From Candidatus Heimdallarchaeum aukensis (GTDB lineage: Archaea; Asgardarchaeota; Heimdallarchaeia; Heimdallarchaeales; Heimdallarchaeaceae): a DNA stretch of 64,000 nt. Shown piece after piece: positions 1-54,155 of this stretch (position 1 is its first letter; the number at the start of each line of letters is the position of its first letter). The stretch spans positions 2,272,001 to 2,336,000 of the forward strand of contig CP084166.1 in NCBI GenBank assembly GCA_021513695.1. The letters run 5' to 3'. Both the position numbers and the translations under genes were made by a program. The notes under the pieces are model-generated. The model was not told the DNA's origin. It made no database searches and worked only from the letters and a program-made list of their open reading frames with translations.

Positions 1-2
1 AT

Positions 3-983: not shown

Positions 984-984
984 T

Positions 985-1683: not shown

Positions 1684-1773
1684 GTCAAGTAAAGTTATCC
1701 TATAAGAAAGAATTATCTTTATTCAAAAAGTAAATTAAGAATAGTGAATATAGTTAATCATTAGATTTACAAG

Positions 1774-2463: not shown

Positions 2464-2495
2464 AAAGAGAATACAAAGACAGCCAATTTCTCTAT

Positions 2496-3530: not shown

Positions 3531-3656
3531 TTAAAACACCATTACTTGTATAACCTATATATTTTATTATTTAAAGTTAATTTCAAATAAAGATCTGAGA
3601 ATAAATGGTCTGAACAGACAAGAATTAAATAAGGAAAGAAAAAAGTTAAACCGCCA

Positions 3657-4898
3657 ATGACTAAAAGTAATGAATATGTATTTTTTAAACTTGGACGGAA
3701 TAAGGAGTTGGCGGAAGTTGAAATTTCCACAATTCTTGAGAAAGTGGGAATAAATAGAAAAATTAGTTATTTTCAGTGGAAAGAATTTCTCTTTGTTAAA
3801 ATAGAAAAAAAAGAAGAACAGAAGGTTCTTCAAAAAATTAGAGAAACTGGAAGTATAGTAAAAGTTGGTAGTTGTTTTGCAAAATGTAATTCTGAGATTG
3901 AAGTTAAAAAAGTGATACCAGACAAAATTAATCAGATAATAGAAAAATTCTCAGGAAAAAAAGAAAAAATAAAATTTTCAATTAACCTTCAAATAGAGAA
4001 AGAAAAACAAAAATCTTTTTCTGAAATAGTGAAGAATGAGATACTAAAAATTGCAAAAGATAAAAGGGTAGAAGTGAAGATAATTCCAAAAAAAGGATAT
4101 TCACTAGAACTTAGCCCTTACCAGTATCACAAAGAAAATATGCCAAAAAGAGGTGTAGAATTAATTATTTTTGGTATAAAGTCAAAGTTGTATCTTGGAG
4201 AAACAAAATGGGTAACAAATCCATTCTTTGACATAAAACTTGATGAAGGACGGCCAGAACGATTATTTACACATGGGACATCAATAAAAATGGCTCGTTC
4301 ATTAATTAATCTCACAAATATCAAGAAAGGTTGTAAAATAGTAGATCCTTTTTCAGGAACAGGAACTCTATTGATTGTAGGATTGTTACAAGGTTATGAT
4401 GTTTTGGGTTTTGAAAAAGATCCGAGATGTGTTAGAGTTGCTAAAACAAATATACGTTGGGCAGTTGATAAATACAAACTTGAGCGAAGTTGGAAAATAT
4501 ACAAGAATGATGCCAGGGATATGCATAAAATAATTAGTGAAAAAGTTGATGCAGTTGTAACAGAACCATATTTAGGGCCATTTCTAAAAACTCTTCCTGA
4601 TTTAGAAGAAGGAAAAAAAATAATCCATGAACTTGAAAAGTTATATGCTAAAGTTTTATATTCGTGTAGTCAAATCTTGAAAGATGATTCTAGAGTAGTC
4701 ATAATCTTTCCTTTTTATGAATATCCAGACAAAACTAAACTTTCAATTAATTTAGAACGTGTAATAAATGGTTTATCGTTAGAACTAGTAGAAAAGACTC
4801 TTCACTTTAATGTTAGTTTTCCTATCAGCATCGGAAGAGAACATAATATTATCTCAAGACAAATTGTTATACTAAAGAAAAATAGTATGAAACAATAA
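3657..4898 (+). CDS. putative RNA (guanine-N2)-methyltransferase, Trm11/UPF0020-like
   Basis: SAM motif I IVDPFSGTGTLL and catalytic-type motif VVTEPYLG (variant of D/NPPY), with a long N-terminal extension that could be THUMP-like. Substrate not determinable. Confidence 0.5.
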   Translation: MTKSNEYVFFKLGRNKELAEVEISTILEKVGINRKISYFQWKEFLFVKIEKKEEQKVLQKIRETGSIVKVGSCFAKCNSEIEVKKVIPDKINQIIEKFSGKKEKIKFSINLQIEKEKQKSFSEIVKNEILKIAKDKRVEVKIIPKKGYSLELSPYQYHKENMPKRGVELIIFGIKSKLYLGETKWVTNPFFDIKLDEGRPERLFTHGTSIKMARSLINLTNIKKGCKIVDPFSGTGTLLIVGLLQGYDVLGFEKDPRCVRVAKTNIRWAVDKYKLERSWKIYKNDARDMHKIISEKVDAVVTEPYLGPFLKTLPDLEEGKKIIHELEKLYAKVLYSCSQILKDDSRVVIIFPFYEYPDKTKLSINLERVINGLSLELVEKTLHFNVSFPISIGREHNIISRQIVILKKNSMKQ

Positions 4899-4931
4899 TC
4901 TTTCAATCTTTGTTTAATTTACTAATCTTAT

Positions 4932-5195
4932 TTAATCTTCGCCAACCGCAAGAAAACTCATATCTTTTGTTAGTTTTTGGATACGTCTTTTAGTTTTAGA
5001 AATCCATGAGACATGAATTAATCCATTAGTTTCCAAAGAGAGTAGAGCTTTGTTTAATTCAGTTTCGGAATAATCGCCATAAAGTTCTCTAAGTGGATTT
5101 TCTAGCTCATTCTCAATAATTACTCCGCCCCGTTTTTCTAAAATTGCGAGAATACAAGATTTTAATGGCGTAACTCTCCATGCTGCAGAGGTCAT
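4932..5195 (-). CDS. small winged-helix-like hypothetical protein
   Basis: 87-aa ORF with purine-rich coding strand. The LKSCILAILEKRGGVI...LETNGLIHVS pattern resembles a wHTH. No family assigned. Confidence 0.4.
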   Translation of the reverse strand: MTSAAWRVTPLKSCILAILEKRGGVIIENELENPLRELYGDYSETELNKALLSLETNGLIHVSWISKTKRRIQKLTKDMSFLAVGED

Positions 5196-5343
5196 CGTAG
5201 AATCACCTAAAATAAAGATGTAGTAAGCTTTTTAGAATGTTTTGTTCCACAAGAAAAAGAGTCGAACTTTTAAATCTAAGAGACAAAATAAATTAGAAAG
5301 ACAAAATTTTTAATATATACTTTTTTTCAAGTTTTTAGTTATT

Positions 5344-5523
5344 ATGAACACACGAAATCGTATATATGTGATTATTACTTTATCGATAGCAATATTATTC
5401 TTAATCATTGCAATTGTTCAATCACAAATTGACAGTTTTAGCGCAATAACGAAGATGACTGAAGAAGAAGTGAAAAATTTCTTGTCGGGATACTTAGCAG
5501 GTTTCCCAAAACCATGGGAATAA
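5344..5523 (+). CDS. small membrane protein (59 aa), not in ORF track
   Basis: ATG 5344 to TAA 5521-5523. MNTRNRIYVIITLSIAILFLIIAIVQ... gives one clear TM helix. Ends 15 nt before the next gene, whose start follows gagagg. Confidence 0.4.
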   Translation: MNTRNRIYVIITLSIAILFLIIAIVQSQIDSFSAITKMTEEEVKNFLSGYLAGFPKPWE

Positions 5524-5538
5524 AGTGAGAGGATTGAA

Positions 5539-6465
5539 ATGACAAAGAACAAAGAAAAAAACATAACATTATCTTTACGTCCGATAACTAATCATAAAAT
5601 TAGAATAGTTAGAATCATTACACAATTAGTAATATTTAGCTTATTAAACGGGTTAATATTTGGGCTAGCTAGAGTAAGTTTAATTTTACCTATTGAATAC
5701 CCTACAGGAGGACCATTTTCTACGGTATGGAGTGGTTTTGAAGCGTTACAGTATGGGCTAACAATCTTTACCTTCCCCTATCTTGTAATAGCTATCTTTG
5801 GATTATTTGGAGCTGTGGCTGGAAAAACAACTTGTGGATGGGCTTGCCCAATGGGATTATTCCAAGATTTATTTAGTTACATCCCAATAAAAAAGAAAAA
5901 AGTTTCTAAACCAACAGAAAAGTCACTAAGAAGTTTCGCCGTGTTCATTATTATATTCGCTTTAGTATTCTCTTTAGTCATAGGAATATCTTATAATAAA
6001 AACGGTTCTGCAGCAAAAGACGCTTATGGAATATGGGGAAATATTCCTTATAGTGTGTTAGATCCCGTAGCAACAATTTTTGCAACTCTGTTTTATTATC
6101 TAAAATGGGGAATCCAAGCAGAAACACTTGGAGCTGAAATGGGTGATTGGAAATTTTGGTTTATTGCAAGAATATTATTCTTAGCAATAATCTTAATCCT
6201 CATAACCTTATATCCAAGAGCTTATTGTAGATGGTTCTGCCCAACAGGATACATATTAGGCTTTTTCAATAACTTTAGTCTATTTGGTTTAAAAATAAAT
6301 AAGAATAGATGTCCAACTGGTTGTAATAAATGTGAAAAAGCTTGTCCGGTTCAAGTACCTATACTAGATTATGATAAGAACATAACACATCCCAATTGTA
6401 CAAATTGTGGAGAATGTATAGATGCTTGTCCTGAAGGAGCTCTAAAAATAGGTTTCAGATTCTGA
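5539..6465 (+). CDS. polytopic membrane 4Fe-4S protein, NapH/MauN-like
   Basis: CGWACPMG and CRWFCPTG membrane-proximal Cys motifs, two ferredoxin motifs (CPTGCNKCEKACP, CTNCGECIDACP) and several hydrophobic helices. Confidence 0.7.
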   Translation: MTKNKEKNITLSLRPITNHKIRIVRIITQLVIFSLLNGLIFGLARVSLILPIEYPTGGPFSTVWSGFEALQYGLTIFTFPYLVIAIFGLFGAVAGKTTCGWACPMGLFQDLFSYIPIKKKKVSKPTEKSLRSFAVFIIIFALVFSLVIGISYNKNGSAAKDAYGIWGNIPYSVLDPVATIFATLFYYLKWGIQAETLGAEMGDWKFWFIARILFLAIILILITLYPRAYCRWFCPTGYILGFFNNFSLFGLKINKNRCPTGCNKCEKACPVQVPILDYDKNITHPNCTNCGECIDACPEGALKIGFRF

Positions 6466-6519
6466 TTATCCAAACTTATTTCATAGAAATTCTTTTTCTT
6501 TTCTCTTTTCTTTTTTGTA

Positions 6520-7773
6520 TTAACTTTGAATTTGTAAAGAATGATGGTATGCTTCTTTTTCTGTTTTTTGAAGAATAGAACTGTAACCTTTTTCTAAATA
6601 ATCCTGAATAATCGAAAGAACTGATTTTGATATGGGAAGTTTAACACTGTTATTAGTTTTCAGTATTTCTTCTATACTCACTTCAAGAGAGTCAAGATAA
6701 AGAGCAGCAGAATAAAGTTCCTTAATAAAGTTGTAATTCTTATGTATAATGAACCCTTTTAAATGAGACATTTTTAATAAAATCTCTGATAAAATTAAAT
6801 TAACCTTATTCGCTTGCTCTGGAATATATCGAATAGGAGAATAACCAAGTTTCATTTCATAATTATATCTAAAAGCTTTAACGCGCGGAAGAACCAATCC
6901 TAATCTTTTGAATGCTTTTCTGTCGAAATCCCCATATTTATCATTGTTTCCGTAAAGCTCTAAATATTTGGCTACCAAATGAGGATAATGTTTTCTAAGG
7001 GTATCAATAAATTCATCTTTATTTCTCCCTGGCTTAAGAGTAAGTCCCCAAGTGATAACATACTCTGCATTAGCTTTTTTTGCTTTGTGAAAAATATTTT
7101 CAATGTTTTCTTTTGTATCTCCAATAAAGGGTAAACATGGATTGAAATAAACCCCAGAATGTATTCCTTCTTTACGTAATTTAGAGATAGCTCGAAAACG
7201 ATCCTCTGAAGAACTAGCACGAGGTTCGAAAATCTTACGAACTGAATCATCCGCGAGAGTGATAGTGAAATTAACACTAGCATAAGTCTGTTCATTAATA
7301 GCTTTAAGCAAGTCAAGATCACGAAGAACGAGAGTGCTTTTTGTGAGAATGAAGACTGGTAATTCATAATCATGTATGACTTGAAGAAGTTTACGAGTAA
7401 GTTGAAGTTCTTTTTCTGCAGGTTGATAGACATCGCAAACTCCTCCACCTACAAAAATAACGAATTTAGAAGGAGAAGGCATCTGAATTCGCTCAACTGT
7501 AGTATCTAAATAGTTGAGTAATGAGTGGGATGAATTAGGAGAAAAAAATCCTCTTTTTTTGAGATATTTCTCCAAGAGCTCTGGAGCATTAACCTTAACT
7601 TTGATTCGATTAGCAAAATCTTCATGCATATAATAGGATTCAGCTTTACCGTCACAATATTTGCAATCGTGCCAACAACCCTGATAGGGATTAAGGTAAA
7701 CTTTAGCCCAAGAGAAAAAAGAAGGTGTTACTTCTTTAATTAACGATTTAGCACGAATACGTTCAATGATCAT
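6520..7773 (-). CDS. radical SAM protein, SplB/COG1533-like
   Basis: N-terminal NPYQGCWHDCKYCDG (CxxxCxxC) as in the 'DNA repair photolyase' radical SAM family. Long helical C-terminal extension. Confidence 0.6.
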   Translation of the reverse strand: MIIERIRAKSLIKEVTPSFFSWAKVYLNPYQGCWHDCKYCDGKAESYYMHEDFANRIKVKVNAPELLEKYLKKRGFFSPNSSHSLLNYLDTTVERIQMPSPSKFVIFVGGGVCDVYQPAEKELQLTRKLLQVIHDYELPVFILTKSTLVLRDLDLLKAINEQTYASVNFTITLADDSVRKIFEPRASSSEDRFRAISKLRKEGIHSGVYFNPCLPFIGDTKENIENIFHKAKKANAEYVITWGLTLKPGRNKDEFIDTLRKHYPHLVAKYLELYGNNDKYGDFDRKAFKRLGLVLPRVKAFRYNYEMKLGYSPIRYIPEQANKVNLILSEILLKMSHLKGFIIHKNYNFIKELYSAALYLDSLEVSIEEILKTNNSVKLPISKSVLSIIQDYLEKGYSSILQKTEKEAYHHSLQIQS

Positions 7774-7876
7774 TGTTTTCCCAATTAATCAAATAGAGTT
7801 TTTTTTATTTATAAAGATAGTTAGGTTGCTAGATTATCACCTTTAGATAAAGAAAAAAAGACATAGAATTAAAATA

Positions 7877-8947
7877 TTAAAACGATAAGGAAAAAAAGTC
7901 ATTGTTATTAAGTTTCGAATGAAACAAATAGCTTTTCCATTCAAGTTTACACGAACAAGAAGGTAAGTCCTGAAGAATATTGGGATCTTGAGAAAGAGTG
8001 AAATCTTTTAGGGCTTGAACAATTGTAGAGTCACAAGAACCACAGTTATGAGCTCCTCTCTTTTTACCTCCTGCAACAGGGTCACAAATGATTCTTAAGT
8101 TGGGATAGAGAGTAGAAAGTTCTCGGCAGATATGTACAAGTGACCATAAGTAGGGGGGACGATAAAGATTCTTATCAAAAAGTGAAGAGAGATAAGTGTC
8201 GCGTTGTATATTTATTGCATTAATTGATACGGTGTCTACCCCTAAAGAAACAACCTGTCTAACACTGTTAAAAACGTCCAACATGGAGTCAAATTCTGAA
8301 ACAAAAGGTGGTTTGAAAAGAAGGTAAGCTTTAATTTTTGCCCCAAAGGAAAAAACACGTTTTGTAGCACGTTCGAAATCTTCCCAAAAGAAACCTTTGT
8401 TTATAGAATCACGAAGAATAGCATTATTCGCACTTTCTAATCCTATAGCAATCTCAACTTTAGAAATATCAAAGTGATCACGGAGAAGTGTTAGTTTTTT
8501 TTCTGTAACATATGAAGGTCGAGACTCTAGTACTAACTCTTTAATACTTGACGAATAAGGTTGAAGTTCATGAAGGATAGAAATTAGAACATGGTTTGGG
8601 ACTTCGAGAGAATCAAGAATGCTACCACTAGTAAATAGTTTTATAGAATAAGAAAGGGACGGATCAATTAAAGAGGATAATTTAGAAGAAAAATCAGAGA
8701 GCATCTCTGAAAAATCTGGTTTTTGAGGGTTATCATAAAGATAACCGCAAATTGAACAACCTCCACTACGAGAAAGAGCCCAAGAACAACCTCTTGTAGG
8801 AAGAATAAAAACAATAGCTTTTGCTGGGCCAGTACGAAGACGATGATCTTCAACCCATGCAACAAGACGACGTGAAGTAGAACGCTTGGAAAGGGCTGAT
8901 TGGCGGTAACTATGGATTATGGAACTAAAAGAAGGGTTTATTTTCAT
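7877..8947 (-). CDS. raSEA: archaeosine biosynthesis radical SAM protein RaSEA (TIGR01210-like)
   Basis: Cys cluster region TRGCSWALSRSGGCSICGY and C-terminal CGSC/CSC cysteines. Its ATG overlaps the ArcS stop (ATGA at 8944-8947). ArcS-RaSEA pairing is known in archaea. Confidence 0.7.
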   Translation of the reverse strand: MKINPSFSSIIHSYRQSALSKRSTSRRLVAWVEDHRLRTGPAKAIVFILPTRGCSWALSRSGGCSICGYLYDNPQKPDFSEMLSDFSSKLSSLIDPSLSYSIKLFTSGSILDSLEVPNHVLISILHELQPYSSSIKELVLESRPSYVTEKKLTLLRDHFDISKVEIAIGLESANNAILRDSINKGFFWEDFERATKRVFSFGAKIKAYLLFKPPFVSEFDSMLDVFNSVRQVVSLGVDTVSINAINIQRDTYLSSLFDKNLYRPPYLWSLVHICRELSTLYPNLRIICDPVAGGKKRGAHNCGSCDSTIVQALKDFTLSQDPNILQDLPSCSCKLEWKSYLFHSKLNNNDFFSLSF

Positions 8948-10872
8948 TTTGTTTCACCTTTTTTGAGTTTGAGTTTTTTCTTTACTATAGCTAAAGAACC
9001 AGATGACATTTTATTCATGTCAACACCAGCAATAAGTGCACGAGCAGTGGCCAAAACACAACCTGAATTAACAATAAATATTTCATCAGATGGAAGAATA
9101 AATTCAGAAGCGTGATTACAACCAGGGGCGTAGATAGAACTACCTGTGATGGTCTCTGCAGCAAAATCTAAGTTGACGAGAGAGTAATCGAGAATCTCTT
9201 GAGCTGCTGCTGGCTGGAGAGAAAGAAAACCTGTACGGGAAAGATATGTGGCTATAAGTTTTTTTTCTCTGAATATCTGGATGTCTCTAGGATATTTACC
9301 ACGAGTGCGAATTGGAGAAGAAAAGAGAATATTACCTGAGCCAGGACCGTATTGGTAATCTGCCGTAGCAATGAGTTTGCGGAGAAAAGGAGATAGATTG
9401 TGAGATGAATTGGAGTCAGTAAGGTCCAAAGAAGAAAAAACTTCGCGTAGGGTTGAAGAAAGATTAGAAAGAGATGAAGAACTAGTTGGACGATCAGATA
9501 TGGAAGTATGATATACAGTCAAATTCAAAGAATTAGAAACACGTTCAACTATATCAGAGTAACCTTGACCATATGTGTGATTAATAAGAATAATGTTTTC
9601 TGGAAACTTAGAAAGAACATCAATGAGAAGAGACGAAGTGACAGCTATTTCTTCTTCTGACCAGAAACCTGAAACTGGTATATCATAAAAACGAGGAGGA
9701 TAAAGAGATTCGAGTTCACGAGGAACAACAGAAAGCGGAGAGGTAATTATTAACTCTGAAAGAAATGGTAAAAAGGATTTTCCTGCTTGACGGAGAGATT
9801 GAATAAAAAGTGAATGAGAGCGAGAAAGAGAATAAGGTTTTCTTGCAGAACAAGGAAAAAGAATTACAACTCGAGTTTGAGGAGATGGATTAAAGCGTTC
9901 TCGAACACGATGTCGGAAAAGTTCAACTTCAGGACGATTAAGCGATGAAGAGCTAGTACAAACTAAAGAAGTAGACTGTTGAGCTGGAAAGCGAGAAAGG
10001 AAGGTAGAGGAATAGTTACGGTCGAAGTAATTGAGAGTCGAAGAAAGAAGGGGTGAAGAATGAACATCGCGTTCTACTAAAGTACGAAGGTTATCAGACT
10101 CCAAAAAGAAACGGATTTGAGAAAGTTTGTTAGCCATGACTTGAAGATTGTGTCCTAGGATGTCGGGAGGAGAAGAGCGGCAGAAAGAACAATAACATTC
10201 TGGATGATTAGAAAGAGGATAAACAGAATCAGAAGTGAGGAAAAAACCTCGTTCTGAGAGATAGTAAGCAAGAGAATCGTCGAAAAAGTCTATACCTGAA
10301 TAGACAAGAAAAGAATAATAGGCGGGGGCAATTGGACCAGGAACATATAGAGCTATATCTGGAGAAAGTCGAGAGCGTAGAGAAACAAATAATTCAGAAA
10401 GTTTACGCTGATTGTTAAAGAGAGAAGAAAGACCAGTAAGAACAAAAAAAGAACAGTCAGTAGATAAAACATCTTCTAATAGAGGAGAATCGAAGAAAGT
10501 ATAAGGTAAAGTAAAAATTTGAGAATGAAGGTCTGGGAGAGATAGAAAAGAGGTAACATATTCAGAAAAAGATGATTCTGACAGAGTAGATGAAACAAAC
10601 GAAGGGTAAAATGGTTGAGATGAAAGTGTAAAAGAAGAAGAAAGAACTCGCTCGGAAAGGTGAGGTGGAAAAGACCATCGTAACTGGAAAGAAGAATCTA
10701 AGTCAGAAAAACGGGGAGGAAAAGAAGAATCAAAAAAACCTGAAAAGCCAAAATTAGAAGGTTTGTTACCAGAATTGAAAGAGAGAAGACCTGGTGCGAG
10801 GATATGAGAAGTACGAGTCTCAGCTAAAAGGCGAGAAAAACCAAAGGCAGAGAGAGGTTGAAAGAAACGCAA
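8944..10872 (-). CDS. arcS: archaeosine synthase ArcS (TGT-like N-domain, DUF5591 core, C-terminal PUA)
   Basis: DUF5591-type block ILFPCSARKPYSLSRSH and PUA-like C-terminus (SSIYAPGCNHASEFILPSDEIFIVNSGCVLATARALIAG). Uninterrupted 642-codon ORF with TTG start. Very Ser/Phe/Leu-rich and divergent. Confidence 0.7.
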   Translation of the reverse strand: MRFFQPLSAFGFSRLLAETRTSHILAPGLLSFNSGNKPSNFGFSGFFDSSFPPRFSDLDSSFQLRWSFPPHLSERVLSSSFTLSSQPFYPSFVSSTLSESSFSEYVTSFLSLPDLHSQIFTLPYTFFDSPLLEDVLSTDCSFFVLTGLSSLFNNQRKLSELFVSLRSRLSPDIALYVPGPIAPAYYSFLVYSGIDFFDDSLAYYLSERGFFLTSDSVYPLSNHPECYCSFCRSSPPDILGHNLQVMANKLSQIRFFLESDNLRTLVERDVHSSPLLSSTLNYFDRNYSSTFLSRFPAQQSTSLVCTSSSSLNRPEVELFRHRVRERFNPSPQTRVVILFPCSARKPYSLSRSHSLFIQSLRQAGKSFLPFLSELIITSPLSVVPRELESLYPPRFYDIPVSGFWSEEEIAVTSSLLIDVLSKFPENIILINHTYGQGYSDIVERVSNSLNLTVYHTSISDRPTSSSSLSNLSSTLREVFSSLDLTDSNSSHNLSPFLRKLIATADYQYGPGSGNILFSSPIRTRGKYPRDIQIFREKKLIATYLSRTGFLSLQPAAAQEILDYSLVNLDFAAETITGSSIYAPGCNHASEFILPSDEIFIVNSGCVLATARALIAGVDMNKMSSGSLAIVKKKLKLKKGETK

Positions 10873-11055
10873 AAATTACACCTAATAAAAGAAAATAAAA
10901 GAAGATTAAAAAGAATACGATTAGAAAGAAAAGAAAGACGGAACATTAGAAATAATTAAAACGATTTATATAAAATTTAAAATAAAAAAGGCTAATACTC
11001 TTGAGAAAAAATCAGTTGTATAATAAAAAAAGCAAAAGAAAAACTTTTCAAAAGT

Positions 11056-11096
11056 AACGAAAATTTTAAAACAGTTAAAAAAGTAGAAGTATCAGA
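11056..11096 (+). promoter_or_regulatory. copy 1 of duplicated upstream module (probable tRNA promoter with TTTTAAAA TATA-like box)
   Basis: 41 nt identical to 11275-11315 (aacgaaaattttaaaacagttaaaaaagtagaagtatcaga). Degenerate similarity continues to the tRNA. Ends 36 nt before tRNA-Lys(CUU). Confidence 0.6.
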
Positions 11097-11132
11097 AAAG
11101 CCTAAAACTTGCGAAAACGAGCGTTTTAGATG

Positions 11133-11209
11133 GGCCTCGTGGCTTAGTTAGGTAAAGCAACGGACTCTTAATCCGTCGATCAGGGGTTCAAATCCCCTCG
11201 AGGTCACCA
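11133..11209 (+). tRNA. tRNA-Lys (anticodon CTT), CCA encoded
   Basis: Hand-folded cloverleaf: acceptor GGCCTCG/CGAGGTC (one G-U), D stem GCTT/AAGC, anticodon stem ACGGA/TCCGT with loop CTCTTAA, T arm AGGGG-TTCAAAT-CCCCT, discriminator A then CCA. Confidence 0.9.
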
Positions 11210-11274
11210 ATTTTTTAGATTGTTCTTTTAAATAAGTTTGAATCCTCTACAATCCATTTTTGATTTTATTCTTA

Positions 11275-11315
11275 AACGAAAATTTTAAAACAGTTAAAAA
11301 AGTAGAAGTATCAGA
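11275..11315 (+). promoter_or_regulatory. copy 2 of duplicated upstream module (probable tRNA promoter)
   Basis: 41/41 identity with 11056-11096. Ends 32 nt before tRNA-Lys(UUU). Confidence 0.6.
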
Positions 11316-11347
11316 CATGCTTAAGACTTGAGAAAACAACATTCTCG

Positions 11348-11455
11348 GGGCTTGTAGCTCAGCTAGGTAGAGCAGCAGGCTTTTAAGCTTTCTGCGAGCC
11401 ATGCAAAAGCGCTGACACCTGTCGGCCATGGGTTCGAATCCCATCAAGCCCGCCA
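11348..11455 (+). tRNA. tRNA-Lys (anticodon TTT) with about 31-nt intron at canonical 37/38 position, CCA encoded
   Basis: Acceptor GGGCTTG/CAAGCCC, D stem GCTC/GAGC, anticodon stem GCAGG/CCTGT, loop CTTTTA|A split by 11386-11416, T arm ATGGG-TTCGAAT-CCCAT, discriminator G then CCA. Intron AAAAGC can pair with GCUUUU of the anticodon region (BHB-like). Confidence 0.85.
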
Positions 11456-11556
11456 AACTCTTTTTACCTTGTTTGAAAAGAAATCAAGAAGAGATACTAT
11501 AAAGTCAAAAATTTTTTTCAACATATTTTAATAATTTATTATTTTCTATATCTTGC

Positions 11557-12606
11557 ATGAAAACTACTCATGAAATTATATACTCCTCTTCTAGCTCTCT
11601 TCCTTCTATTCTTTCAAGTAGTGTTAATATTGTTGTCACTTCTCCCCCTTATCCAATGATTGAGATGTGGGATGAGCTTTTTTTTAATCTTAATCCTGAA
11701 ATCAAAACTTCTTTAACCTCTTATCCATCTTTAGCTTTTGAGCTTATGCATTTAGAGCTTGACAAAACTTGGAATGAAATTGATCGTCTTCTCAAACCTG
11801 GTTCGATTGTTTGCATAAACATTGGTGATGCAACGCGAAAGATTGATGGTAACTTTGCTCTTTATTCTAATAGTTCTCGAATAATCAGAAAATTTCTTGA
11901 ATTGGGCTATTTTTGTTTACCTTCTATTCTGTGGCGCAAACAAACTAACTCTCCCACCAAATTTATGGGGTCAGGCATGCTTCCTCCCGGTGCCTATGTA
12001 ACTTTAGAACATGAGCACATCTTGCTTTTCCGTAAAGGTTCTAAGCGAGAGTTTAATTCTTCCGAATCTAAATTGAATCGTCGTCGTAGCGCTTATTTTT
12101 GGGAAGAACGTAACCTTTGGTTTTCTGATATTTGGGAGTTTAAAGGCGTAAGTCAAAAACTAAATTCTGAAGTTTTGCGCTCTCGTAGTGCTGCATATCC
12201 TTTTGAGTTAGCTTTTCGCCTTATTAACATGTTTTCAGTTCAAGGTGATACAGTTCTTGATCCTTTTTTAGGTACGGGAACAACTACTCTAGCAGCTATT
12301 ACTTCATGTCGTAACAGTATTGGTGTAGAAATTGATAAAAATTTCAAGGCTATTATTCTCGAAAGCATAAGAAAGGTAAAAGATTTTGCAAATGGTTATA
12401 TTGATAATCGTTTGCAGGCACATCTGGCTTTTGTTAAACAAAAAGAAGAAACACATTCCTTTAAGCATCGTAACTCTATTTATGGTTTTCCTGTTATGAC
12501 TGCACAAGAAACTGATCTTTACTTTCCTAAAATTAAAAATGTTAAAATAAAAGATGAATCGCTTTTCGAAATTATTTATAAAAATAAAGAAAAGATTTAT
12601 TCGTAA
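11557..12606 (+). CDS. DNA N4-cytosine/N6-adenine methyltransferase (beta-class), no adjacent restriction enzyme
   Basis: Motif IV TSPPYP near the N-terminus and motif I DPFLGTGTT near the C-terminus (beta-class order). Ser-rich, pyrimidine-rich coding strand. Confidence 0.8.
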   Translation: MKTTHEIIYSSSSSLPSILSSSVNIVVTSPPYPMIEMWDELFFNLNPEIKTSLTSYPSLAFELMHLELDKTWNEIDRLLKPGSIVCINIGDATRKIDGNFALYSNSSRIIRKFLELGYFCLPSILWRKQTNSPTKFMGSGMLPPGAYVTLEHEHILLFRKGSKREFNSSESKLNRRRSAYFWEERNLWFSDIWEFKGVSQKLNSEVLRSRSAAYPFELAFRLINMFSVQGDTVLDPFLGTGTTTLAAITSCRNSIGVEIDKNFKAIILESIRKVKDFANGYIDNRLQAHLAFVKQKEETHSFKHRNSIYGFPVMTAQETDLYFPKIKNVKIKDESLFEIIYKNKEKIYS

Positions 12607-13376
12607 AAATCATCTCTTGTTCCAAACTCTCTTTCTATTGCAGCGATTAGTGTTTCTATATTATGCATAGTTGTCGCGCTTATTGGAAACAGTTCACCTG
12701 TGTTTCTAAATTGTTCTATAGTTTGTATTATGTTCAATCCTAGTTGTTTTGATAATGATATTGTTTGTCCTCTTTCTATTTCTATTCCTATTGTTTCTGG
12801 TTCTTCTATCCATCTTTCTAATCTTTCTTTGTGATCTTTTTTTATTAAATCTGCTTTTGAAATTACGGGTATTTGAGGGAGTTCTAATTGGAATTCTACT
12901 GATAGGCTTAGTAATAATATGCTTGCTAAACCTTCAGGTTTTAGTACTAATGATGGATCTATTAGGAACACCGATACAGGTTCTCTGTTTTCTTTTAACA
13001 TATTAGCGATAAACTTTCCACTGCTTCTATATGCAAATAATTCTATTTGTCCTGGTGTGTCTACGATTAAATATTGAGGGTCAACGTACTCCACTTCTGA
13101 CATCAAATCATGTATTTTAGTTGCTATTAGGTCCATACTGGCTATCATCGCCCCATTTGGACCTAGGTTGTATTCGTTTACTATTTCATTTATGTCTACT
13201 ATATCTCTTACATCTATCGCAGGAGCGTAAGGTATTGTTCTTACACCCGCATCTAAGTTAAGTATACCTACATCTAACTTCTTTTCCGAGAACCAATCAA
13301 ATAATGTCCTTGTCAGAAAAGTTTTTCCTGCTCCCGCAGTTCCAAGTAGGTAAATTATGTATTTTCTATCTGGCAC
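12597..13376 (-). CDS. GPN-loop GTPase
   Basis: Walker A GTAGAGKT, signature LGPNGA, DTPGQIE switch II. Confidence 0.85.
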   Translation of the reverse strand: MPDRKYIIYLLGTAGAGKTFLTRTLFDWFSEKKLDVGILNLDAGVRTIPYAPAIDVRDIVDINEIVNEYNLGPNGAMIASMDLIATKIHDLMSEVEYVDPQYLIVDTPGQIELFAYRSSGKFIANMLKENREPVSVFLIDPSLVLKPEGLASILLLSLSVEFQLELPQIPVISKADLIKKDHKERLERWIEEPETIGIEIERGQTISLSKQLGLNIIQTIEQFRNTGELFPISATTMHNIETLIAAIEREFGTRDDFYE

Positions 13377-13379
13377 TTT

Positions 13380-14165
13380 TTATTCTCCTATTTCTGTTAT
13401 CTTTATTTTGGGTTGATTCTCTTTTATTTTATCCATCAAAAACCTTTTTGCTTTTGCGACTATTTTTTCTCCTTCTTCTCCAGAATATGAAAAATGAATT
13501 GTTATTCCTTTTCTTTCTCCAAATTGAGGATGAGATTTAACATACAGTTTTTTAAATTTCTTCTTTGTTTGATTAATATAAGGTGCTATCTCACTTTCTC
13601 TACAGTTTTCTATCAGTATTTTACATTCTGTTATGCGGGTTTTTATTTTAGACGATAGGTAAGGGTGAATAGCCGTTGTGTATATAGATTTCACCTCCGT
13701 TGGGACACCAGGCAAACAGAATATCTCTGTTTTCTTATATTTTATTAAACATCCTGGCGCTGCTCCCGCACTGTTGTTTAGTATTTTTCCTCCTTCAGGT
13801 ATCATTGCCATCTTTCTTCTCTCTTCACTCATTTCTAATCCATACTTTTCATAATGCTCTTTTATTAACTCTAAGGCTTCTTTATTTTCTATAAGTCTCT
13901 TTCCTGTTACTCTTGATATAACTTCCATTTGTATATCATCATATGTTGGACCCAATCCACCTGTGACAATCAATATTTCTGGTTCTCTCTCTATGACTTC
14001 TTTAATGCACTCGCTTGCTTGTTCTAGATCATCCCTTACACTAGTTATTCTTCTTACTTCTATTCCTAATCTGGTTAGCTGTTCTCCAAGGTAAGTTGCG
14101 TTTGTATTAACAGTAATTCCCATTAGCAGTTCGTTTCCTAAACAAACAATCTCCGCTGTAACCAT
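13380..14165 (-). CDS. CinA-family MoCF-binding domain protein (COG1058-like)
   Basis: N-terminal AEIVCLGNELLMG...TNATYL and VTGGLGPTYDD motifs of the CinA/MoaB-like fold. Confidence 0.7.
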   Translation of the reverse strand: MVTAEIVCLGNELLMGITVNTNATYLGEQLTRLGIEVRRITSVRDDLEQASECIKEVIEREPEILIVTGGLGPTYDDIQMEVISRVTGKRLIENKEALELIKEHYEKYGLEMSEERRKMAMIPEGGKILNNSAGAAPGCLIKYKKTEIFCLPGVPTEVKSIYTTAIHPYLSSKIKTRITECKILIENCRESEIAPYINQTKKKFKKLYVKSHPQFGERKGITIHFSYSGEEGEKIVAKAKRFLMDKIKENQPKIKITEIGE

Positions 14166-14195
14166 TTTTTTTCCTTCTTTACATTTTTCTAATTA

Positions 14196-15272
14196 TTATT
14201 TTGATCTGTTTACTCCCATTTTTGCTATTTCTATGAGATATTCTTTATACTTCTTTTCAAATGCAGGCTCTGCTTTTTCAATAAACAATTTACATGTTGA
14301 GAATAATTCTTCTGCTTTTGCTTTAGCATAATCTAAAGCTCCTGTTTCTCTCATAATGTCTTTTATTTCTTCTATTTCTTCTTTTGTTGCATTTCTTTTC
14401 CCAATTACTTGTTTGAGTTTGTCTTTTTCTTTGTCATTCGCATTTTCTATTGTCTTTATTAGTAAAATTGTTTTTTTTCCTTCTTTAATATCGCTATCTA
14501 CTGGTTTTCCTGTTTTCATTTCATCTCCAAACGTACCAATGATGTCATCTACAATCTGGAAAGCTATTCCCATATTTCTTGCATAGGATGACAAAGCTTT
14601 AAGTTGCGTTTCTTCTGCTTCTGCATAAATTGCTCCCATTTTTGTTGCTTTTTCAAATAACGCTGCTGTTTTTCCATTTATCATTTCAAAATATTGCTTT
14701 TCTGTTACTTCAAATCTCCCTTGCATGTCTGTTTCATAGATGACCCCTTTTACAACTTCCATAAATCCCTTATTAAATTCTGAAGCTGCTTTTATCATTA
14801 TATCTGGTTTGAAATCTACTCTGTTTAGTGCTTTGTATGCTAAATTATAAACAAAATCTCCCCCTAGTATCCCCATGGCTAGGCCATAATCTTCAGGTTG
14901 AACATTCTTTTTGGGATAATTTTGCTTTGAATAATCTCTTAAAACTACATGAAAAGCTTTTTTTCCTCTTCTTGTTTCAGCAAAATCCATTATGTCATCA
15001 TGAATTAAACTAGCATTATGAAGAAGCTCTATCGATAATGAAGCAGGATAAATGGATTCATTGAAGTTAGTGTTTAAACAAGCTTCATAGGAAAGTAACA
15101 TAAGTACTGGTCTTATCCTTTTTCCTCCTGAAAATAGAAAATTATTAACTTCTTGAACATAATATTCTAAAAAAGGATTGTCCTTACATGCAGCAATTTC
15201 TTCGTTTATAAACTGTGTAAGTGCAATATTTACTTGTTCCATTTTTTTAGTGTAGAAACCTTTGAAATTCAT
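14196..15272 (-). CDS. idsA: polyprenyl (geranylgeranyl) diphosphate synthase
   Basis: First Asp-rich motif LIHDDIMDFAETRRG and second FQIVDDIIG. Confidence 0.85.
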   Translation of the reverse strand: MNFKGFYTKKMEQVNIALTQFINEEIAACKDNPFLEYYVQEVNNFLFSGGKRIRPVLMLLSYEACLNTNFNESIYPASLSIELLHNASLIHDDIMDFAETRRGKKAFHVVLRDYSKQNYPKKNVQPEDYGLAMGILGGDFVYNLAYKALNRVDFKPDIMIKAASEFNKGFMEVVKGVIYETDMQGRFEVTEKQYFEMINGKTAALFEKATKMGAIYAEAEETQLKALSSYARNMGIAFQIVDDIIGTFGDEMKTGKPVDSDIKEGKKTILLIKTIENANDKEKDKLKQVIGKRNATKEEIEEIKDIMRETGALDYAKAKAEELFSTCKLFIEKAEPAFEKKYKEYLIEIAKMGVNRSK

Positions 15273-15420
15273 TAACTATCCCTTGATATTTTGAGAGAAA
15301 GGTAATATTATTAATTTTTTTCTAAGAATTTATCCTTATCTGTATTTTCCATTTTTTTAAATTAAAAAATCCTTTATCCCAATTTATTTAAACTCTCTTT
15401 CCTTCCTTTATAAGAATAAT

Positions 15421-16050
15421 ATGCATTCCTATTTAAAAAAATTTCAAGAAGTTGCACAATCAATTGAAACAGAACTTAATAAAAAATCAACTTTAAAGGA
15501 AAAGTTGCTAAAGTTATCTCGTGATCTAGTAAAAACTTCTGGAAAAGTTATTTCAAATGTCCATTCAAAAAGAGTAAACGAAGCAGAACAGTTGCTCTCT
15601 ACTGCTATGTCACTTCACTCTCAGATCTGTGAGTTACTTTCTCAAGATCCGTCTTTTACAGATTCAGGATATATTTTAACAGCTTTACAAGAGTTTACTG
15701 AAGCCCACATTTTCTTCTCTTTGATTTCTAATTCTCCAATTCACTCTCCAACAGAGTTAAATGTAACTGATCAAGCTTACTTGTTAGGAATTGCAGATGT
15801 TATTGGAGAACTTCGGAGGCATATTCTTGAGATATTAATAAATGATAATATTGAGGAAGCAAAGAGGTTTTTTCAATTAATGAAAGACTTGTATGATATT
15901 TTCTTACAAATAGAAATCGACAAATCTTTGATCAGTGACTTTAGAAGAAAGCGGGACATGGCTAGAGTTTTGATAGAAAAAACTCTCTCCGATTTGTTTA
16001 TTGCAATTCAAAGTAAAAGATTAGAACTAAAAATGAAAGACTTAAGCTAA
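15421..16050 (+). CDS. translin-family protein (COG2178-like)
   Basis: All-helical, 209 aa, with YLLGIADVIGELRR block characteristic of translin/TRAX. Confidence 0.6.
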   Translation: MHSYLKKFQEVAQSIETELNKKSTLKEKLLKLSRDLVKTSGKVISNVHSKRVNEAEQLLSTAMSLHSQICELLSQDPSFTDSGYILTALQEFTEAHIFFSLISNSPIHSPTELNVTDQAYLLGIADVIGELRRHILEILINDNIEEAKRFFQLMKDLYDIFLQIEIDKSLISDFRRKRDMARVLIEKTLSDLFIAIQSKRLELKMKDLS

Positions 16051-17423
16051 TCTCTTGTAATAATTAATACTCCCACATCCATTACGTTTGTACCAGTGTA
16101 TCCCGTGATTATTTCTCCATGGAATTTATGGAAAAAACTATTCGTATCATGCTTTTTTAAACTCTTTTTTGCCTCTTTTTTTCTTAGTCTGTTACTAATT
16201 GTAAACGGCCCTACAATTGCTCCAGCTGCCTCAGAATTTCCGTCAATACCATCAGTTCCAAATTCAATAAGATATGCTTTTTTATTCTTTCCTAGCTTTA
16301 ATACAAAAGACAGAGCTAACTCTTGATTTCTTCCGCCTTTTCCAATATTTTCTGTATTTTTAGGAAGTTCTACTGTGGTTTCTCCACCCCACAAAAAAAC
16401 TCTCTCTCGTGGATTTTTTTTCACATATTTTTTAGCTATCCACTTACCTATTTTTGCAGCCTTTCCTTCAATGTTGTATGAAATTATTTCTCCATCGATA
16501 TTGTTTTGCTCTAAAATGTTTTCTCTTAAATGGTTTAGAACTACTTGGTTGCTACCGATTAATACATTATTTACTTTACGGAATTTTTCTCTATCTTTCG
16601 GAGTTTCATAATTTTTTTGTTTATGTCTATCTTGTAGTATCTCTTTTACTTCTATTGGTAATTTCTTTTCAATTTTGTATTTTCTAATTATTCTTTTACA
16701 GTCTTCCCATGTTGTTGTATCCATAACCGTAGGACCTGAAGATATGTTTGTTGGGTCATTCCCTGGTACATCAGAGATAATAAATGAATAGATATTTGCA
16801 GATGTATAGTTAACTATTTTTCCCCCTTTGATTTGAGAAAAGTGTTTTCTTACAGTATTTATTTCATGTATTGTGGCACCACTTGATAATAAAAGTTTCA
16901 TTAACTTTACATAACTATCCATTTTGATTATTGGTAGTTCAAATAGAGATGATCCTCCTCCTGAGATGAGGAAAATGCAAACATCTTGTTCTTTTAATTT
17001 TGACAGTATTTCGATTGTTTTTTTGGCAGCTTTTATACTTTCATCATTTGGTATAGGATGTCCTCCCCTAAAAAAATGACAATTTGGGATATTTTTTATT
17101 TTATCACTTGGTTCATCAGGAGAAGAAATAAGTATCTGATTAAAGGAATAGGGGGCATTTGTTATAAACCAATTAGCCATTGTCTGTGCTGCTTTTCCAA
17201 ATGAAATTAAGTAAAAATTTGCATTTTTGTCAAATACAAATTTCTCTTTTTTGCATATCAAGCTATTTTCTTCAAATTTTATATTTCTATTCAAAAAAGA
17301 ACTCGGTTGTGCAAAATTTATAGCTTCTTCTGCTGTATCTAATAGAAGTTTTACATATTTTCTTTCCTTCTCATCTGAGATTTTTGATAGAATTTCTCTC
17401 TTATTTTTAATCCATTCACTCAT
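16047..17423 (-). CDS. glycerate 2-kinase (MOFRL/DUF4147 family)
   Basis: FGKAAQTMA, LISGGGSSL, WGGETTV, GGRNQELALS and GTDGIDG blocks. Confidence 0.8.
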   Translation of the reverse strand: MSEWIKNKREILSKISDEKERKYVKLLLDTAEEAINFAQPSSFLNRNIKFEENSLICKKEKFVFDKNANFYLISFGKAAQTMANWFITNAPYSFNQILISSPDEPSDKIKNIPNCHFFRGGHPIPNDESIKAAKKTIEILSKLKEQDVCIFLISGGGSSLFELPIIKMDSYVKLMKLLLSSGATIHEINTVRKHFSQIKGGKIVNYTSANIYSFIISDVPGNDPTNISSGPTVMDTTTWEDCKRIIRKYKIEKKLPIEVKEILQDRHKQKNYETPKDREKFRKVNNVLIGSNQVVLNHLRENILEQNNIDGEIISYNIEGKAAKIGKWIAKKYVKKNPRERVFLWGGETTVELPKNTENIGKGGRNQELALSFVLKLGKNKKAYLIEFGTDGIDGNSEAAGAIVGPFTISNRLRKKEAKKSLKKHDTNSFFHKFHGEIITGYTGTNVMDVGVLIITRD

Positions 17424-17426
17424 TCT

Positions 17427-18062: not shown

Positions 18063-18068
18063 CTTTTA

Positions 18069-18761: not shown

Positions 18762-19024
18762 GAGTTATCAAAAACATAGATATTTGTACTTTCTTAAATT
18801 TTTCAGTTAATCAACTTAATTTTTTTGCATTTTTTTAATCAATTTTGCTCTCACGGACTTTTAAAGGGGTAGAACTGGTCTTTTATTGTACCATAGTAGG
18901 CGGTTGAGTGCCATACAAAAATAATTAGTTGCTTTTATGTTATCTCCTTCTTTTCATCAAAAGTATATTTTTTTGTAATTCGAATAAAAACCTTTAAATA
19001 TCCAGTTAGAAACTGTATAATGGG

Positions 19025-40706: not shown

Positions 40707-40795
40707 CTGTTAAATAACAAACTTGGACAATATTATAAAGTATAGGATTTGTTTCTTCCAAAAAAGACTTATTGGTATCCTCCTTTTTTTCCTTA

Positions 40796-53657: not shown

Positions 53658-53764
53658 AATTAGTAGTCATTGATTACAACCATAGTTTAGTAGAAAAAAA
53701 CTTTGTGTTCTATTAAATAGTTTAAAATAGGGAAAGTTAAATAAGACTTTGAGTAGATTCTTAT

Positions 53765-54132: not shown

Positions 54133-54155
54133 CTAACAATTTGTTGAGAAATCAA

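Follow-up and report, generated by a model that had tools for sequence, protein, structure and literature searches.

Two overlapping minus-strand genes of the window (the whole stretch of DNA analysed, 64 kb in length) most probably encode an intact archaeosine synthase of the Heimdall group of Asgard archaea, with ArcS as the alpha subunit and RaSEA as the beta subunit, and the divergent look of the pair stems from an N-terminus peculiar to its clade together with a local strand bias; we put the probability of this reading at about 0.85. As a gene pair, the finding is routine and extends the ArcS-RaSEA route to archaeosine, characterised in Euryarchaeota, to a Heimdall-group Asgard lineage. 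The strand bias is the more interesting result: a conserved enzyme can take on a highly divergent look through a mutational bias tied to position. The two genes are:

8944..10872, minus strand: arcS, archaeosine synthase alpha subunit homologue (ORF of 642 aa, TTG start)
7877..8947, minus strand: RaSEA, radical SAM enzyme for archaeosine formation, beta subunit (ORF of 356 aa, ATG start)

The assignment of the 642-aa ORF to ArcS, made in the initial annotation, is borne out by profile searches and by a full-length ArcTGT-like fold. The protein matches the NCBIfam ArcS model NF040592 (3.4e-108, 362.7 bits) and Pfam DUF5591 (PF17884; 7.2e-43, 146 bits against a cut-off of 26), with further Pfam matches to TGT, TGT_C2 (4.3e-7), and PUA (9.4e-4, under its cut-off). 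The score lies below the NF040592 equivalog cut-off of 440, which is an annotation threshold and not a biochemical feature; all seven Asgard ArcS homologues tested also score below 440 (338–411 bits), a Methanosarcinales ArcS scores 657, and the model is tuned to euryarchaeal ArcS. Because the NCBI model misses all Asgard ArcS tested, the NCBI names of such proteins are 'DUF5591 domain-containing' or 'hypothetical'. The AF2 model of ArcS (pLDDT 89.4, pTM 0.90), which is mostly confident over residues 1–135, has its best fold match in ArcTGT 1J2B/1IQ8 (Foldseek E 4e-19, 575 columns, TM 0.54–0.60), and the C-terminal C2/PUA part matches AF0587 2Q07 by sequence and fold (TM 0.81). The parts of ArcS are:

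10468..10872, minus strand: N-terminal part of the TGT-like barrel, residues 1–135, without alignment to the euryarchaeal ArcS profile
10150..10197, minus strand: zinc-site motif C226-x-C228-x2-C231...H241, aligned to ArcTGT 1IQ8
9814..9855, minus strand: ArcS signature PCSARKPYSLSRSH (P340–H353), within the DUF5591 domain
9448..9927, minus strand: DUF5591 domain, residues 316–475 (Pfam PF17884)
8977..9372, minus strand: C2 (residues 501–562) and PUA (residues 576–632) domains, from Pfam and the fold match

The signature at residues 340–353 keeps the motif P340-C341-x3-K345-P346-Y347-x2-S350-x2-H353 (PC-x3-KPY-x2-S-x2-H), which Phillips et al. are said to have described in 2010 as diagnostic of ArcS; P340, C341, S342, K345, P346, Y347, S350, and H353 are invariant across 43 sequences that include annotated euryarchaeal ArcS. 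C226/C228/C231/H241 align with C279/C281/C284/H307 of the P. horikoshii ArcTGT, and D198 aligns with ArcTGT D249. Across 43 ArcS homologues, H241 is invariant and conservation of the three cysteines is 90% or higher. The profile check for zinc-binding and catalytic residues, suggested at the outset, thus found the motif, the zinc site, and D198 all kept. That only short islands of ArcS are recognisable is true by eye, but by alignment the protein is colinear with its clade over all 642 residues. The TGT-like N-domain was described as barely detectable; residues 1–135 fail to align with the euryarchaeal profile, a clade-wide trait (the NF040592 match begins at residue 137 in the window ArcS and at 133–141 in all Heimdall homologues).

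The 356-aa ORF is assigned to RaSEA: it scores 306.4 bits against TIGR01210, above the curated equivalog cut-off of 212.15, and its residues 31–347 cover profile positions 2–309 of 313. Pfam Radical_SAM gave no match to it at E<=0.01 and only a 'weak' one in relatives. Profile searches placed both ORFs in the families proposed for them. Two groups of RaSEA residues stand out, the second of which probably constitutes another metal site, as judged from its sequence:

8747..8788, minus strand: radical-SAM cluster cysteines C54-x9-C64-x2-C67, invariant in 40 Asgard RaSEA
7949..8050, minus strand: C-terminal H300, C302, C305, C331, and C333, invariant in 40 sequences

The junction and the starts of the two genes were read directly from the sequence:

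8944..8947, minus strand: ATGA stop/start overlap of arcS and RaSEA
10879..10883, minus strand: AGGTG Shine-Dalgarno-like site of arcS, 6 nt 5' of the TTG
8955..8959, minus strand: AGGTG Shine-Dalgarno-like site of RaSEA, within the last arcS codons

The plus strand reads TCAT at 8944–8947, which is ATGA on the coding strand, and the RaSEA ATG (8947–8945) shares bases with the ArcS TGA (8946–8944); the overlap noted initially is thereby verified on the minus strand. The spacing between the RaSEA AGGTG and its ATG is 7 nt, and neither ORF contains frameshifts or stops. The TTG start of arcS, also noted before, is supported because the N-terminus (M/L)RFFQP is kept in 24 clade members and because of the AGGTG site upstream. 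The ATGA overlap and the internal AGGTG may couple translation of the two subunits, and such coupling would favour matched subunit amounts.

The pair had been called highly divergent, and this applies to the N-terminal ~135 residues, which differ clade-wide from euryarchaeal ArcS, but not to its position among relatives: the window ArcS sits within a Heimdallarchaeota ArcS clade (P0002–P0039, named 'DUF5591 domain-containing protein' or, at JGI, 'archaeosine synthase') of full-length colinear orthologues. Over its full length it shares ~50% identity with dozens of these proteins (range 47–61%), is colinear without large gaps with 23 Heimdall homologues, and shows 52% ArcS identity to the nearest GTDB representative. 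The clade shares the tRNA-Lys/arcS/RaSEA layout with the window, tRNA-Lys(TTT) likewise lying just 5' of arcS in relatives, and often the ATGA overlap as well (the same 4-nt overlap occurs in 8/14 Heimdall loci); in the window, by contrast, the tRNA-Lys genes point away from arcS and the ATP_bind_1..RFK block lies in inverted order. RaSEA lies directly downstream of arcS in 47/47 loci that have a RaSEA homologue, these being Asgard (Heimdall, Loki, Thor, and Jord) plus one MAG labelled Thermoproteota, and one locus (P0043) carries an apparent in-frame ArcS-RaSEA fusion. The two genes are thus genetically linked in Asgard archaea, and their adjacency, often with the 4-nt overlap, runs across the Asgard lineages sampled, whereas no euryarchaeal locus examined has RaSEA in the sequence flanking arcS, of which up to 10 kb was covered.

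Among the closest known systems is the T. kodakarensis ArcS-RaSEA complex, an archaeosine synthase with lysine transfer (Yokogawa et al. 2019, as summarised in PMC11298593); RaSEA-dependent lysine transfer to preQ0-15 is biochemically known for T. kodakarensis alone (PMC11298593). The window pair has the same families, ArcS signature, zinc site, C2/PUA part, and RaSEA radical-SAM cysteines, and we infer for it the same chemistry, preQ0-15 to preQ0-Lys to G+. In this scheme, modelled on the T. kodakarensis enzyme, ArcS would act in a complex with RaSEA and attach L-lysine to the preQ0 nitrile at tRNA position 15, and the radical-SAM chemistry of RaSEA would then cleave preQ0-Lys to give the formamidine of archaeosine. 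Archaeosine synthase activity and complex formation of the window proteins are predictions from sequence, and the window ArcS is only about 28–30% identical to euryarchaeal ArcS. Because the M. jannaschii ArcS is reported to use Gln, Asn, or NH4+, not lysine (as cited in PMC11298593), the nitrogen donor of the window ArcS could also differ. The P. horikoshii ArcTGT (1IQ8/1J2B) has the same multi-domain fold as ArcS and shares the zinc site and the D249-equivalent Asp, but it swaps G15 for preQ0, lacks the DUF5591 insertion bearing PC-x3-KPY, and is 15–16% identical to ArcS. No ArcTGT had been seen in the window, and this stands: an hmmsearch of all ORFs of at least 80 aa, with an ArcS profile that is also sensitive to ArcTGT, matched ArcS alone, Pfam scans of the 45 other window ORFs gave no TGT domain, and no ArcTGT or preQ0-synthesis gene was found within the 64 kb.

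What makes ArcS look odd is the composition of its gene. The purine fraction of the arcS coding strand is 0.344 (0.40, 0.36, and 0.28 at codon positions 1, 2, and 3) against 0.55–0.60 in most window genes and 0.49–0.53 in the Heimdall clade, and it falls to 0.26–0.29 in the first 200 codons; the pyrimidine bias is strongest over residues 1–135. Codon choice follows suit: CGN outnumbers AGR by 34 to 3 among Arg codons, where the background ratio is 207 : 540, and TCN outnumbers AGY by 109 to 3 among Ser codons. Relative to seven orthologues, the third position has changed by -0.17 in A and +0.17 in T. In the protein, Ser reaches 17.4% (7–13% in the clade) and Lys drops to 2.8% (6–9% in the clade), and of its 181 differences from the clade consensus, 43 are gains of Ser. 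It is on the nucleotides that the bias acts, depleting A + G at all three codon positions; ArcS has its odd, divergent look because its coding strand is pyrimidine-enriched at this level, and the depletion of A/G has turned Lys, Glu, Asn, and Ile into Ser, Leu, Phe, and Arg(CGN). Selection on the protein as the cause of the Ser enrichment would leave synonymous sites and adjacent genes free of bias, and both are biased. The pyrimidine enrichment of this strand had escaped the initial annotation.

From this composition, from the ArcS score under the equivalog cut-off, and from the low mean identity of the window protein (50.5%) and of P0039 (48.9%), which stand furthest from the rest of the clade (~55%), one might conclude that the pair is decaying or neo-functionalised and has lost the ability to make archaeosine, its Ser-rich low complexity reflecting relaxed constraint. 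We consider this highly improbable given that dN/dS against a strain with a 97% identical ArcS is 0.14 for ArcS and 0.19 for RaSEA, both genes thus being under purifying selection, that the ORFs are intact, that all columns invariant across 43 ArcS and 40 RaSEA homologues are retained, that the AF2 fold is confident over the full length, and that the locus is syntenic with the tRNA-Lys/arcS/RaSEA layout of relatives. A pseudogene or relaxed selection is rejected by the dN/dS values and the intact invariant residues.

The composition of arcS is part of a larger pattern, a sawtooth in strand composition with the following extent and centre:

3600..19000, no strand assigned: local strand asymmetry, seen as plus-strand third-position A-T skew
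11133..11209, plus strand: tRNA-Lys CTT (ARAGORN and Rfam)
11348..11452, plus strand: tRNA-Lys TTT, intron-containing (ARAGORN and Rfam)

On the plus strand, the A-T skew at third positions climbs to +0.42 at arcS, switches to -0.38/-0.47 to the right of ~11.3 kb, and is back to about 0 by ~19 kb. The switch is centred on the two tRNA-Lys genes upstream of arcS, both divergent from it, and the bias dies away over ~7 kb to either side. In the window, as in L017, a locus of a related lineage with orthologues of the window genes, the sawtooth is antisymmetric: T exceeds A and C exceeds G on the outward strand of each flank. The bias declines with distance in both loci (Spearman -0.84, p=1e-5, and -0.72, p=0.002, respectively). 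Neighbouring genes that point inward shift the opposite way, to A-rich, with an effect that scales with distance. Comparison of orthologues between the window and L017 revealed that the sign of the bias follows gene orientation and not gene identity: ATP_bind_1 is at +0.47 in the window, where it is inward and by the centre, and at -0.19 in L017, where it is outward and far; RFK is at -0.56 in L017 and +0.11 in the window. Among strain differences, A<>T transversions make up 24/119 at 6–12 kb against 11/140 elsewhere (Fisher p=0.006). Most Heimdall relatives of the same gene order show the bias weakly or not at all, and among 88 ArcS loci (about 80 distinct genes) there were no cases of a composition like that of the window arcS outside a small sub-lineage.

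As the source of the bias, a replication-initiation zone is our leading guess: a zone of this kind, or another site of frequent unwinding in the tRNA-Lys/arcS region, is a possible but tentative driver. The outward parental strand would repeatedly become single-stranded, for longest near the centre, and would lose purines there, for example by depurination, with mainly T put in. The antisymmetry of both flanks in the two loci, the drop with distance, the dependence of sign on gene orientation, and the excess of A<>T transversions near the centre all point this way, as does the T>A on the outward strand, which is the polarity of the leading-strand AT skew at bacterial and mammalian origins. Against it, the outward C>G is the reverse of the G>C usually seen on leading strands, replication skews as a rule span whole chromosome arms and not about 7 kb, Pfam scans revealed no Orc1/Cdc6 gene in the window, the skew centre has no ORB-like repeats (its sole notable repeat is a duplicated 63-nt tRNA promoter region), and most relatives with this gene order lack the bias or have it weakly. 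A search of one literature library on skew or origins in Heimdallarchaeia returned nothing relevant.

Transcription-associated mutational asymmetry, or R-loops arising from strong divergent tRNA-Lys promoters, with a T-rich non-template strand, would explain why tRNA genes lie at the centre in the window, L017, and L001, why the skew makes a lesser jump in the same direction (+0.11 to -0.19) at the tRNA-Val gene at 54.06 kb, and why the strongly affected genes of L017 are all transcribed outward; it is nevertheless unlikely, because the right flank at 12.6–18.8 kb is biased although its genes are mainly transcribed towards the centre, which would demand antisense transcripts that start at the tRNA and methylase promoters and read through for kilobases. 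In the unannotated 550-nt tRNA-Lys/arcS spacer of L017, a search for ncRNA with Rfam at E<=1 gave tRNA and chance matches, and the ORFs there are short only. An antisense gene as the cause of the purine-rich plus strand over arcS was rejected, the only plus-strand ORF of at least 60 aa being one of 71 aa at 8900–9115. Also rejected was a skew carried over by inversion of the 12.6–18.8 kb block, because inversion preserves coding-strand composition, yet the window genes are opposite in sign to their L017 orthologues. Highly improbable as well, a horizontally acquired rSAM-RaSEA-ArcS-methylase island (6.5–12.6 kb) from a donor with pyrimidine-rich codons would fit the CGN-rich Arg and Y-rich fourfold sites (0.70–0.79 against 0.50) of these four adjacent genes, the lack of the methylase and rSAM gene at this position in relatives, and the adjoining tRNA genes, which are common integration sites, but the Heimdall clade has orthologues of ArcS and RaSEA in synteny with the window, L017 has the same bias over its vertically inherited neighbours RFK, CTP-transferase, and MOFRL, the 88 loci supply no such composition outside the small group, and orthologous neighbours right of the centre shift oppositely by orientation and in proportion to distance, which is not the pattern of a transferred island; transfer is therefore rejected.

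Returning to the initiation zone, we speculate, with slightly more reserve, that in the Heimdallarchaeial sub-lineage of the window, P0002, and P0039 groups the tRNA-Lys/arcS region is a fixed centre of strand-asymmetric mutagenesis, most plausibly a zone of replication initiation or recurrent unwinding, that rewrites the composition of flanking proteins over ~7 kb per side; with the same reserve, outward genes such as arcS would come to encode Ser/Phe/Leu-rich proteins and inward genes Lys/Glu-rich ones. If true, the places where replication starts in uncultured Asgard archaea could be located by their third-position A/T sawteeth, with sequence as the only data needed. Skew jumps are familiar from bacterial oriC and from the S-jumps of mammalian 'N-domains', and gradients from strand displacement are familiar from vertebrate mtDNA. 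Unlike these, the sawtooth extends ~7 kb per side, sets purine against pyrimidine (C>G as well) and not keto against amino, comes with no initiator gene or ORB repeats found, and is confined to a small sub-lineage; it shares with them the abrupt sign change, the outward T>A, and the gradient with distance.

The pair that the initial annotation had read as ArcS, a homologue of the archaeosine synthase alpha subunit, and RaSEA, the radical SAM beta subunit, is laid out as follows:

8944-10872, minus strand: ArcS-like gene, 642 aa, TTG start
10879-10883, minus strand: AGGTG upstream of ArcS, 6 nt from the TTG
7877-8947, minus strand: RaSEA-like gene, 356 aa, ATG start
8955-8959, minus strand: AGGTG upstream of RaSEA, 7 nt from the ATG, within the last ArcS codons

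As had been proposed, the ArcS stop and RaSEA start share four bases, ATGA on the coding strand (plus-strand TCAT, 8944-8947). Because the N-terminus (M/L)RFFQP is kept in 24/24 aligned clade members and an AGGTG precedes it, the annotated TTG start is supported. The proposed identities also held up in profile searches: over residues 137-632 ArcS hit NF040592, the NCBIfam model for the archaeosine synthase alpha subunit (362.7 bits, 3.4e-108), and its Pfam matches were DUF5591 (7.2e-43), TGT_C2, TGT and, weakly, PUA, while RaSEA scored 306.4 bits against TIGR01210, the RaSEA model for the radical SAM protein of archaeosine biosynthesis (curated cut-off 212). Among solved structures, ArcS matched AF0587 (2Q07, 7e-26) and P. 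horikoshii ArcTGT (1IQ8, 3e-11). An AlphaFold2 model of ArcS using 43 homologues as input (mean pLDDT 89.4, pTM 0.90), mostly confident in the Ser-rich N-terminal region as well, has its closest folds in ArcTGT (1J2B/1IQ8; ~575 columns, E 4e-19, TM 0.54-0.60) and gives a TM of 0.81 with 2Q07. All 43 aligned ArcS homologues, ranging from Asgard archaea (Heimdall, Loki, Thor) to Methanosarcinales and haloarchaea, carry the signature P340-C341-x3-K345-P346-Y347-x2-S350-x2-H353; C226/C228/C231 are ≥90% conserved and H241 is invariant, and HMMER alignment to 1IQ8 pairs these four with the ArcTGT zinc ligands C279/C281/C284/H307 and D198 with ArcTGT D249. C54-x9-C64-x2-C67 and the C-terminal H300, C302, C305, C331 and C333 of RaSEA are invariant in 40 Asgard sequences. 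A check for zinc-binding and catalytic residues thus found the ArcS signature, the zinc-site residues and the RaSEA cysteines all present. From dN/dS values relative to a sister strain (L088, 97% identical ArcS), 0.14 in ArcS and 0.19 in RaSEA, we infer that both genes are functional and constrained. By sequence criteria, the pair belongs to the ArcS-RaSEA archaeosine synthases, and by analogy its predicted activity and complex would be those of T. kodakarensis, in which lysine is added to preQ0-15 only by the ArcS-RaSEA complex, with RaSEA turning preQ0-Lys into G+ (PMC11298593); it differs from the T. kodakarensis pair in its clade-specific N-terminus, tight gene linkage and extreme composition.

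RaSEA lies directly 3' of arcS in 18/18 Heimdall-clade loci from homologue and locus searches, in every fetched Loki, Thor and Jord locus with a detected homologue and, likewise, in one MAG labelled Thermoproteota; it was not found near arcS in the fetched flanks (up to 10 kb each side) of euryarchaeal loci. The ATGA-type 4-nt overlap recurs in 8/14 Heimdall loci. We note that in one Heimdall relative (P0043, from a single 2.2-kb JGI contig) the C-terminal half of ArcS is apparently fused in-frame to RaSEA, which is either genuine or the product of faulty sequencing or assembly across the ATGA junction; if real, it would support an ArcS-RaSEA complex. As initially annotated, the 64-kb window holds no ArcTGT, nor any TGT-family ORF besides ArcS. 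On its 3' side RaSEA adjoins a same-strand gene for a radical SAM protein of the PA0069/Rv2578c type (6520-7773, minus strand; NCBIfam 157 bits, below cut-off), which also has pyrimidine-rich codons and is unique to the window lineage at this position.

The description of the pair as highly divergent is only partly borne out. The window ArcS averages 50.5% identity to its clade against a mean pairwise identity of ~55% in the Heimdall clade, but database searches returned, besides one relative at 97% and one at 61%, ~40 full-length relatives at 47-55%, many of them labelled Heimdallarchaeota, and the first ~135 residues are unaligned to the NCBIfam ArcS profile in every Heimdall homologue tested. 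Euryarchaeal ArcS proteins are ~30% identical to it. The lineage is poorly represented, since the closest GTDB species representative reaches only 52% ArcS identity. All seven Asgard homologues scored (five Heimdall-clade proteins plus the homologues P0048 and P0054) fall below the 440-bit cut-off (338-411 bits), which explains their NCBI record names, 'DUF5591 domain-containing' or 'hypothetical'; one Methanosarcinales ArcS scores 657 bits.

What sets the window gene apart is its composition. Its coding strand contains 34.4% purines (codon positions 1/2/3, 0.40/0.36/0.28), compared with 0.425 in RaSEA and 0.55-0.60 in most other long window ORFs, and in the protein Ser reaches 17.4% (7-13% in clade relatives) and Lys only 2.8% (6-9%). 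Among 181 departures from the clade consensus, the most frequent gains are Ser (43), Leu (25) and Phe (16), and the chief losses Ile, Glu and Lys. Synonymous usage is skewed as much as the amino acids: Arg codons are CGN 34 : AGR 3 (window background 207 : 540), Ser codons TCN 109 : AGY 3, and fourfold-site pyrimidines 0.79 versus 0.50. Relative to seven orthologues of ordinary composition, third positions shift by A -0.17, G -0.05, T +0.17 and C +0.05, and positions 1 and 2 shift in the same sense. Because synonymous sites and all codon positions shift alongside the amino acids, we conclude that the bias acts on the nucleotide sequence and drags the protein along. Its cost in profile score is ~30-45 bits, the two most skewed homologues scoring 363 and 365 bits against NF040592 versus 392-411 for the others.

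The odd appearance of ArcS is explained by a strand-bias sawtooth, and it is this sawtooth, rather than the ArcS-RaSEA pair, itself of modest interest, that deserves pursuit. The asymmetry reaches beyond the ArcS gene: third positions show a purine/pyrimidine skew, mainly A/T and antisymmetric, that spans 3600-19000, is centred on the tRNA-Lys/arcS spacer (~11.2-11.5 kb) and decays over ~7 kb. Third-position A-T skew, taken gene by gene and expressed on the plus strand, runs as follows:

0-3 kb: ~0
Left flank: radical SAM gene +0.21; RaSEA +0.31; ArcS +0.42
Past the tRNA-Lys genes, plus strand: methylase -0.38
Minus-strand genes: ATP_bind_1 -0.47; MoCF -0.38; polyprenyl synthase -0.25
19-20 kb: back to ~0

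The most extreme genes lie 3-4 SD off 32 background genes beyond 27 kb. On both flanks T is in excess on the strand that runs 5' to 3' outward from the centre, as is C, though less symmetrically; this outward-strand bias falls with distance (Spearman -0.84, p=1.3e-5, 18 genes). The same sawtooth is present in the independently assembled locus L017 of a related lineage (ArcS P0039, 50% identical), where it spans 1-15000 and is centred on the tRNA-Lys/arcS spacer at ~9.2-9.9 kb (RFK +0.56, ArcS -0.59; Spearman -0.72, p=0.002); the lineage of the homologue P0002 has a weak version. It is absent in other Heimdall genomes sharing the gene order, and the composition outliers among 88 fetched ArcS loci (~80 distinct genes) come from these three lineages alone.

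A natural experiment tells position apart from gene identity. Compared with L001, L017, L008, L009 and L011, the window lineage has a seven-gene block (ATP_bind_1, MoCF, polyprenyl synthase, translin, MOFRL, CTP-transferase, RFK; 12597-18761) inverted relative to arcS; the tRNA-Lys orientation is also reversed. Coding-strand skews of the end genes are:

RFK: in L017 adjacent to the centre, outward, -0.56; in the window 7 kb off, inward, +0.11
ATP_bind_1: in L017 ~6.5 kb off, outward, -0.19; in the window adjacent, inward, +0.47

Because inversion alone keeps coding-strand composition, these opposite signs must have arisen in place. The inward-facing MoCF, polyprenyl synthase and MOFRL of the window have more Lys/Glu and less Ser than their L017 orthologues. 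A<>T transversions account for 24/119 differences between the window and the sister strain at 6-12 kb and for 11/140 elsewhere (Fisher p=0.006), an excess which hints that the process is ongoing.

A replication-initiation zone at the centre, or some other point where the DNA is repeatedly unwound, would fit four features of the skew: it is antisymmetric, it has T>A polarity on the outward strand, it does not depend on gene orientation and it weakens with distance. On this reading the outward parental strand would spend most time unpaired close to the centre, and it is there that purines would be lost from it. However, neither an Orc1/Cdc6 gene in the window nor ORB-like repeats at the centre were found, the scale is far below that of normal replication skews, and the G/C polarity is unusual. 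The coincidence of the centre with tRNA genes, together with a smaller same-sign jump at tRNA-Val (54 kb), suggested instead a transcription-associated asymmetry radiating from the tRNA locus, but this would need long antisense read-through over 12.6-18.8 kb. Horizontal transfer (arcS-RaSEA is syntenic and orthologue skew tracks position and orientation), relaxed selection (dN/dS is low and invariant residues are kept) and protein-level selection for composition (synonymous sites are shifted equally) are contradicted by the data.

At the skew centre the window holds two tRNA-Lys genes divergent from arcS, of which ARAGORN in default mode overlooked the intron-containing one, and a 63-nt repeat (two copies, 92% identical), which carries a TTTAAAA box and looks like a duplicated tRNA promoter:

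11056-11118 and 11275-11337: 63-nt repeat, one copy before each tRNA-Lys gene
11133-11209: tRNA-Lys(CTT)
11348-11452: tRNA-Lys(TTT), intron-containing

In 6/6 relatives scanned, tRNA-Lys(TTT) precedes arcS and shares its strand, at ≤ ~110 nt in three and farther in the other three. Two same-species contigs from independent assemblies (L087 and L090) both end within the tRNA-Lys/repeat region, at 0.2-0.65 kb on the upstream side of arcS, suggesting a repeat or between-strain structural variation at the skew centre. The ~550-nt spacer of L017 between tRNA-Lys and arcS (9445-9990) is balanced in composition, has no convincing ORF or Rfam match and holds two TTTTAGGG(C)GGGGA-like elements. An N4/N6 DNA methylase (11557-12606), missing from this position in relatives, directly follows the tRNA-Lys pair, and a C5 cytosine methylase (54141-55121) directly follows tRNA-Val; both have T-rich codon usage and could be what is left of elements that inserted at tRNA genes. 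In the 400-nt ORF-free spacer immediately upstream of tRNA-Val, the Rfam model of HgcG/Pab40, an archaeal H/ACA guide RNA, matches below threshold (53709-53998, plus strand; 50.5 bits, E 6.6e-13, gathering score 77). Between 20931 and 26657 third positions on the plus strand favour T regardless of gene orientation (-0.12 to -0.36), a pattern that stops abruptly at ~27 kb (+0.04) and whose edge may be a further such boundary. Other features of the window are:

2496-3530: FEN1
22260-23723: DnaG-like Toprim protein
29066-29632: Arf-family small GTPase, an Asgard eukaryotic-signature protein
32791-33864: Trm5/TYW2 tRNA-modification gene
40772-41743: TtuA-like tRNA-modification gene
42554-42861: SRP RNA
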